From Escherichia coli (GTDB taxonomy: Bacteria > Pseudomonadota > Gammaproteobacteria > Enterobacterales > Enterobacteriaceae), in NCBI RefSeq assembly GCF_003334815.1, contig NZ_QOWO01000057.1: 13,444 bases of DNA; one strand, 5' to 3'. Shown here piece by piece: positions 2,881 through 2,925 of the stretch (positions are counted from its first letter, which is position 1; each line of letters begins with the position of its first letter). The notes under the pieces were generated by a model. That model did no database searches, was not told the DNA's origin, and saw only the letters and a list, made by a program, of their open reading frames with translations. The position numbers were made by a program, and so were the translations under genes.

Positions 2881-2925
2881 GTCAGCCGCCCTTGCGGGCA
2901 TTCTACGTCCATTCGGGCGGCTGAC
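2881..2925 (-). promoter_or_regulatory. Perfect 11-bp GC-rich inverted repeat (GTCAGCCGCCC ... GGGCGGCTGAC) with a 23-nt spacer, between the iadA stop and the hypT start
   Basis: Arms at 2881-2891 and 2915-2925 are exact reverse complements. On the minus-strand transcript it lies 3' of iadA and 14 nt 5' of the hypT ATG, and is not followed by a U-tract. Confidence 0.45.

Follow-up and report, generated by a model that had tools for sequence, protein, structure and literature searches.

The window (the whole stretch of 13,444 nucleotides of Escherichia coli DNA that was analysed) contains iadA at 2932-4104 and hypT at 1956-2867, two open reading frames on the minus strand. We took both gene names from the RefSeq annotation of identical E. 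coli DNA. HypT is a hypochlorite-sensing regulator of E. coli and Salmonella, and the control of its own expression is poorly described. The gene iraD (1562-1963, plus strand) is convergent with hypT and the 3' ends of the two genes overlap by 8 nt, likewise in K-12.

The gap between iadA and hypT spans 2868-2931 (64 nt), and a repeat search identified an inverted repeat that fills much of it. Its two 12-nt arms (TGTCAGCCGCCC / GGGCGGCTGACA; 2880-2891 and 2915-2926) are 100% complementary and lie 23 nt apart, and a U.G pair is able to add a 13th pair to the stem. A sequence-only reading of this DNA had described a perfect GC-rich inverted repeat of 11 bp. The repeat is real, and the 11 bp are the inner part of the 12-bp arms. 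The 23-nt separation and the 64-bp gap given in that reading also agree with the coordinates, and its distance of 14 nt from the repeat to the hypT ATG is corrected here to 12 nt (13 nt when counted from the 11-bp arm). The features of the gap, in the order in which they would be transcribed, are as follows.

2932..2934, minus strand: stop codon TAA of iadA, 5 nt upstream of the stem
2915..2926, minus strand: upstream (5') arm as read in the iadA/hypT transcript, TGTCAGCCGCCC, a perfect 12-nt complement of 2880-2891
2892..2914, minus strand: spacer (loop) of 23 nt, GAAUGGACGUAGAAUGCCCGCAA, containing a predicted -10 hexamer and a weak inner helix, UGG/CCG
2880..2891, minus strand: downstream (3') arm, GGGCGGCUGACA, immediately 5' of a Shine-Dalgarno-like GAG
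2877..2879, minus strand: Shine-Dalgarno-like GAG of hypT, abutting the stem; AGG, AGGA or AGGUGAU in orthologues
2865..2867, minus strand: start codon of hypT; the orthologues all begin MD..G...

The order on the mRNA strand is thus UAA (iadA stop) ACGGU UGUCAGCCGCCC GAAUGGACGUAGAAUGCCCGCAA GGGCGGCUGACA GAGUAAAACGUA AUG (hypT).

Stability of the repeat and comparison with known element classes

We folded the 81-nt segment that contains the repeat. The minus strand reached -31.7 kcal/mol (z = -3.7), and 0 of 200 shuffled sequences folded as well; this calculation, which the sequence-only reading had proposed as a check, bears out a stable stem. The plus strand of the same segment reached -31.0 kcal/mol (z = -4.4). 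Perfect inverted repeats of at least 12 bp with a loop of at most 40 nt are expected 0.023 times per dinucleotide-shuffled window (300 shuffles). We ruled out a chance repeat on the basis of this expectation and because the repeat is conserved with compensatory changes (see below).

The stem comprises 12-13 bp, nine of which are G-C pairs, and it lies shortly past a stop codon. In these respects it resembles the GC-rich stem-loop of an intrinsic terminator. However, such terminators have loops of about 3-8 nt, whereas the arms considered here enclose a 23-nt spacer that is weakly structured inside, and no U-tract follows. The mRNA-strand sequence just after the stem is GAGUAAAACGUAAUG (also given as GAGUAAAACG), which is free of a U-tract. 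A terminator scan called no terminator-like site at the element on either strand, none of the calls in the four orthologues scanned coincided with the hairpin, and no orthologue has a U-tract. An intrinsic terminator was rejected because the U-tract is absent on either strand, here and in orthologues. The sequence-only reading had likewise argued from the missing U-tract that the repeat is not a canonical intrinsic terminator, and the long spacer and the empty scan lead to the same view.

We compared the element with repeat and RNA families. A 55-nt segment representing it was found in 5390 out of 5426 complete E. coli genomes (E-value ≤1), with a median of one place per genome, and was 100% identical in 4819 of these 5390 genomes. 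The K-12 RefSeq record annotates two coding sequences here and no repeat feature. REP and BIME elements occur as many copies per genome that share a consensus, whereas the iadA-hypT element is single-copy, and on this ground REP/BIME or a similar repeat family was rejected. A search of Rfam gave no match at the gathering score for the element; up to an E-value of 10 there were two irrelevant viral or eukaryotic models, both far below their gathering thresholds. We thus rejected a known RNA family. Overall, the element looks like an ordinary non-terminating intergenic hairpin rather than a new kind of element.

Conservation and compensatory change in the stem

We collected hypT orthologues by scanning one genome per species and added metagenome contigs through exact-protein look-ups. 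The element upstream of hypT is kept in Escherichia, Salmonella, Citrobacter, Pluralibacter and metagenome contigs. The gene order yjiH-yjiG-iadA-hypT was found in Escherichia species, Salmonella enterica subspecies, and Citrobacter amalonaticus and relatives; in Pluralibacter, Entomohabitans and several metagenome contigs; and in Hafnia and Serratia fonticola. All loci with this order have a long hairpin just 5' of the hypT ribosome-binding site. In Hafnia (CUGUUGUCGC...GCGACAACAG, 15-20 bp) and Serratia (GUGGUUAUUUUGCCU/AGGUAGAAUAACCAC, 15 bp) the hairpin occupies the same place and its sequence is unlike the E. coli type. The stem is also lengthened in some lineages, to 14 bp (locus L076) and 18 bp (locus L078). 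A pattern scan of metagenomes for new variants returned four Citrobacter-like or Pluralibacter-like copies and nothing else.

We aligned 14 sequences of the element. The outer stem, TTGTCAGCCG in the upstream arm and CGGCTGACAG in the downstream arm, is nearly invariant: the outer 9-10 bp of both arms (2880-2888 and 2918-2927) hardly change from Escherichia to Pluralibacter, whereas the 3-4 nt inward of them covary with their partners. A -35 hexamer accounts for TTGTCA, but neither it nor pairing alone accounts for the constant GCCG/CGGC, which may also reflect sequence-specific recognition. The ribosome-binding-site region varies freely among the 14 aligned orthologues. The distance from the iadA stop to the stem varies as well (5 nt here, ~11-14 nt in Citrobacter and ~60 nt in Salmonella), which argues against coupling to the terminating ribosome.

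We then imposed the 13-pair stem and a 3-pair inner helix on the 14-sequence alignment. Standard pairs account for 90.2% of the alignment cells; shifting the 3' partners by 1-3 columns lowers this to 31-45%. Six pairs changed on both sides, and the observed covariation score was reached in 0 of 500 shuffles; because many of the aligned sequences are related, the independent events are fewer, and we estimate ~5-6 double substitutions at four positions. RNAalifold recovered the same stem. The following pairs, given by alignment columns, show the exchanges.

Pair 13-44: CG 8, UA 5, UG 1
Pair 14-43: CG 9, AU 2, UA 1
Pair 15-42: CG 12, UA 1
Pair 16-41: GC 6, CG 2, GU 2
Pair 22-36 (inner helix): GC 7, CG 2, AU 1

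Judged from the alignment, complementarity itself is clearly under selection, and this points to a nucleic-acid hairpin rather than a palindrome recognised by a protein. We consider it very probable, on the same comparison, that the iadA-hypT repeat is a selected hairpin. The locus would then have an evolutionarily maintained hairpin that separates hypT from the upstream isoaspartyl-dipeptidase operon.

Several loci of this set differ in their own ways. The iadA-hypT spacer is longer in five Salmonella loci (L083, at ~1890-1950, and also L007, L008, L092 and L094), where an additional hairpin (UUUCAGGCUGCCCC...GGCAUUCUGAAA) separates the conserved element from the iadA stop. In E. coli O157:H7 (L090), the annotated HypT is shorter (855 nt, 284 aa), its start being downstream of the usual ATG, and the hairpin has two loop substitutions with the arms intact. 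A 605-nt contig labelled Bacillus coahuilensis (L072) matches the C-terminal part of E. coli hypT at 100% identity, probably through contamination of that assembly.

A predicted hypT promoter inside the hairpin

A promoter scan of the minus strand identified a sigma-70-like site with TTGTCA and TAGAAT separated by a 16-nt spacer (10 out of 12 matches). It is the one such site in the 900 nt around the element, where 0.5 are expected in shuffles. The predicted promoter features are placed as follows.

2922..2927, minus strand: predicted -35 hexamer TTGTCA (promoter scan), in the first half of the upstream arm
2900..2905, minus strand: predicted -10 hexamer TAGAAT (promoter scan), in the loop
2892..2894, minus strand: predicted hypT transcription start, A2893 being the 7th nucleotide past the -10; placed from promoter geometry

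The sequence-only reading had reasoned that any hypT promoter must overlap the repeat or lie inside iadA. The site found overlaps it: the upstream arm contains the -35, the -10 lies in the loop, and A2893 falls 1-2 nt short of the downstream arm. The scan gave a promoter match at the corresponding position in a Salmonella locus (L008) and a Citrobacter locus (L006); it found no comparable promoter in the Hafnia-like and Serratia loci. Of the 14 aligned elements, 13 have TTGTCA, the exception being Entomohabitans with GTGTTA. At the -10, TA(G/A)AAT, five of six positions are invariant in the 14 orthologues, while every loop column further 3' varies in the same alignment. In E. coli-type elements, TTGTCA and the ATG are always 64-66 nt apart. 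With the match, its position and its conservation taken together, the embedded sigma-70 promoter for hypT is probably real, and a probable hypT promoter can be placed at base resolution. The promoter name 'hypTp4' appears in PMC5961368, and the Adams 2021 supplements that were searched have no entry for hypT, iadA or yjiG.

This placement would have a consequence for the hairpin. An mRNA derived from the predicted promoter would keep the downstream arm and lack the upstream arm, with a 5' UTR of ~26 nt. Because the predicted start at ~2893 leaves hypT's own mRNA without the upstream arm, only read-through RNA from yjiHG-iadA could fold. That an RNA hairpin would be possible only in read-through transcripts is a point that the sequence-only reading missed. 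The prediction is of two hypT transcript forms that differ in structure.

The promoter spacer contains one more conserved word. AATG (within 2906-2914, minus strand, GAATGGACG) is invariant in 13 of the 14 orthologues and, as far as the alignment indicates, is explained by neither the promoter nor the stem.

Possible roles of the hairpin

We tentatively propose, at slightly less than even confidence, that the element is a protective or insulating 3' stem-loop for the yjiHG-iadA message. A stable RNA stem-loop of 12-13 bp and ~-30 kcal/mol would form in the 64-nt iadA-hypT spacer, overlapping the conserved hypT promoter, and would be foldable only in RNA arriving from the yjiHG-iadA operon. Without a U-tract the hairpin would be inefficient at terminating transcription. 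It would block 3'-to-5' exonucleases and in this way define and stabilise the 3' end of yjiHG-iadA, so that the level of this message could be uncoupled from hypT. The same 3' end could alternatively arise by processing of read-through RNA. Hairpin and promoter cannot avoid overlapping in a gap of 64 bp, and the simplest reading of their overlap is tight packing, not a mechanism. Among the three options that the sequence-only reading had offered (stabilisation of the yjiHG-iadA 3' end, an attenuator, or a palindromic protein-binding site), stabilisation fits best with the features described here.

Such a role would have precedents. Reportedly, the REP sequences between malE and malF act as intercistronic stabilising hairpins, as studied by Newbury, Higgins and colleagues in 1987. 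The iadA-hypT element is similarly a palindrome between co-directional genes that could prolong the upstream message over the downstream one, but it is neither REP nor BIME, is single-copy and has no repeat annotation in K-12. An E. coli class of stable stem-loops without U-tracts shields steady-state 3' ends from PNPase and RNase II, according to Dar and Sorek 2018 (PMC6061677). The present element shares with that class a stable GC-rich stem-loop at the end of an operon with no uridines or U-rich sequence after it. It differs in that the start of a translated gene without a C-over-G bias lies downstream and that a predicted promoter lies inside the stem. By composition only, the 120 nt 3' of the stem, which belong to the translated gene, contain 22 C versus 28 G; they are not C-rich and G-poor, as a rut-like Rho-loading sequence would be, and Rho involvement is not indicated. 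If the hairpin merely protects the iadA 3' end, it adds one case to a known class, and its significance lies chiefly in annotation.

The hairpin could also act on hypT. In read-through mRNA it might be a weak attenuator or pause, or it might affect translation or decay of one transcript form near the ribosome-binding site. The stem's 3' base adjoins the Shine-Dalgarno sequence of all orthologues, the -35 stands at the constant distance to the ATG described above, and the two predicted transcript forms differ exactly in their capability to form the hairpin. Nevertheless, we regard this role as unlikely. The U-tract is absent in all orthologues, and in partition-function folding of read-through RNA the stretch from the Shine-Dalgarno sequence to the AUG stays mostly single-stranded; the promoter-derived RNA does not adopt a strong fold of another kind. 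Folding lends no support to a sequestered hypT ribosome-binding site in either transcript form. We also considered a reading frame of 12 codons (MDVECPQGRLTE, 2874-2912, minus strand) that starts at the conserved ATG in the loop, runs through the downstream arm and terminates 6 nt 5' of the hypT ATG. As it has no ribosome-binding site and neither its length (4 to >16 codons) nor its frame is conserved, it does not encode a leader peptide, and a leader-peptide attenuator was rejected. For the attenuator proposed in the sequence-only reading we thus found no positive evidence. A bolder variant, which we regard as decidedly unlikely, is that the promoter-in-hairpin layout is itself functional: it would give form-specific translation or decay of the mRNA for the HOCl regulator, and a sequence-specific factor would recognise the near-invariant outer arms, TTGTCAGCCG and CGGCTGACAG, besides the -35 contact.

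Autoregulation is common among LysR-type regulators, and the DNA-binding dimers of these proteins recognise dyads of ~15 bp (T-N11-A type). The repeat could accordingly be a DNA operator in which a symmetric protein, HypT in autorepression or another regulator, would sit on arms that bracket the -35 and positions +1 to +13. The element lies over the predicted promoter of a LysR-type gene, and HypT is reported to shift a 158-bp fragment of its own promoter in gel-shift assays, with the site unmapped (PMC3792123). In a docking model of the reduced Salmonella HypT tetramer, two DNA motifs lie 25-30 nt apart (PMC6397515), and the arms here are 23 nt apart. The near-invariance of the outer 9-10 bp across genera would also suit an operator. 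However, the inner pairs change on both sides in several lineages with complementarity kept, which a protein site would not need. Neither arm is internally palindromic or contains a ~15-bp T-N11-A dyad for one DNA-binding dimer, and the arm centres are 35 bp apart. The footprints of HypT on fhuA (TTACGTTATCATTCA, AACCCTTCCTTTTCA) are unlike the arms, and Salmonella hypT mRNA is unchanged with HOCl (PMC6397515). Finally, the arms are replaced in Hafnia and Serratia, although the recognition helix of HypT there, SQPAFSRRI, is identical to that of E. coli, so that arm sequence is not conserved where the helix is. Because the arms differ in species with the same recognition helix, a HypT operator is unlikely on these comparisons, and for an operator of any kind the probability seems to us low. 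The palindromic protein-binding site of the sequence-only reading is disfavoured for the same reasons, the covarying inner pairs and the different Hafnia and Serratia arms.

A separate similarity to a HypT footprint lies in the promoter spacer. Both words of GAATG-N-ACGTA recur, 2 nt further apart, in the reverse-complemented fhuA footprint of Salmonella HypT (TGAATGATAACGTAA), and by this resemblance GAATG-N-ACGTA may be a HypT autoregulatory site.

Substrates of RNase III typically have about two helical turns. The hairpin could be where RNase III or a similar enzyme specific for double strands cuts a polycistronic RNA into its iadA and hypT parts. Its position between two cistrons and the long, near-perfect stems (12-13 bp plus the inner helix in E. 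coli, 18 bp in L078 and 15-20 bp in Hafnia) are compatible with processing. Yet the E. coli stem is shorter than a typical RNase III substrate and nothing about the element is specific to this enzyme, and we consider such a site very unlikely.

The protective 3' stem-loop that we propose, as well as the roles in hypT mRNA and in processing, would be served by the hypT-sense strand, and we compared the two strands across the orthologues. Folding favours the sense over the antisense strand by 2.7-15 kcal/mol in Citrobacter, Pluralibacter sp., Hafnia and Serratia (6.6-15 kcal/mol in Hafnia and Serratia alone); for E. coli and Salmonella the two values are close, or the antisense strand has a small advantage. 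All six of the non-Watson-Crick pairs that still pair in Hafnia and Serratia are G.U on the hypT-sense strand; the stem of one Hafnia locus (L015) has one true mismatch. The assignment of strands by G.U versus A.C is mixed within the E. coli/Salmonella group. Here E. coli strain E1 (L091) and Salmonella L007, L092 and L094 carry the identical G-to-A substitution in the downstream arm (GGGCGACUGACA, GGGCGACTGACA); the result is a C.A mismatch in sense RNA, as opposed to a G.U pair in antisense RNA. We favour an RNA hairpin on the hypT-sense strand as the most likely form. That the plus strand is the functional one, with the hairpin ending or stabilising an RNA antisense to hypT such as convergent read-through from iraD, is highly improbable: the plus strand folds equally well here and slightly better in Salmonella and E. 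coli, the recurrent G-to-A change gives a G.U pair on this strand only, and the plus-strand stem is followed by the partly U-rich ACAACCGUUUAUGCCGUUU, but the antisense fold is the weaker one in the four other groups by the margins given above, the terminator scan was empty on both strands, and the element lies ~920 nt past the iraD stop.

The window holds two other perfect inverted repeats. One, at 2046-2078, has 11-bp arms (CTGAATCGGGA / TCCCGATTCAG) and an 11-nt loop and lies in the 3' part of hypT, ~83 nt past the iraD stop on the plus strand; it has no T-run after it and received no terminator call. The other, at 8124-8180, has 10-bp arms (TGACAAAAAG / CTTTTTGTCA) and a 37-nt spacer, and ~0.5 such repeats are expected per window.
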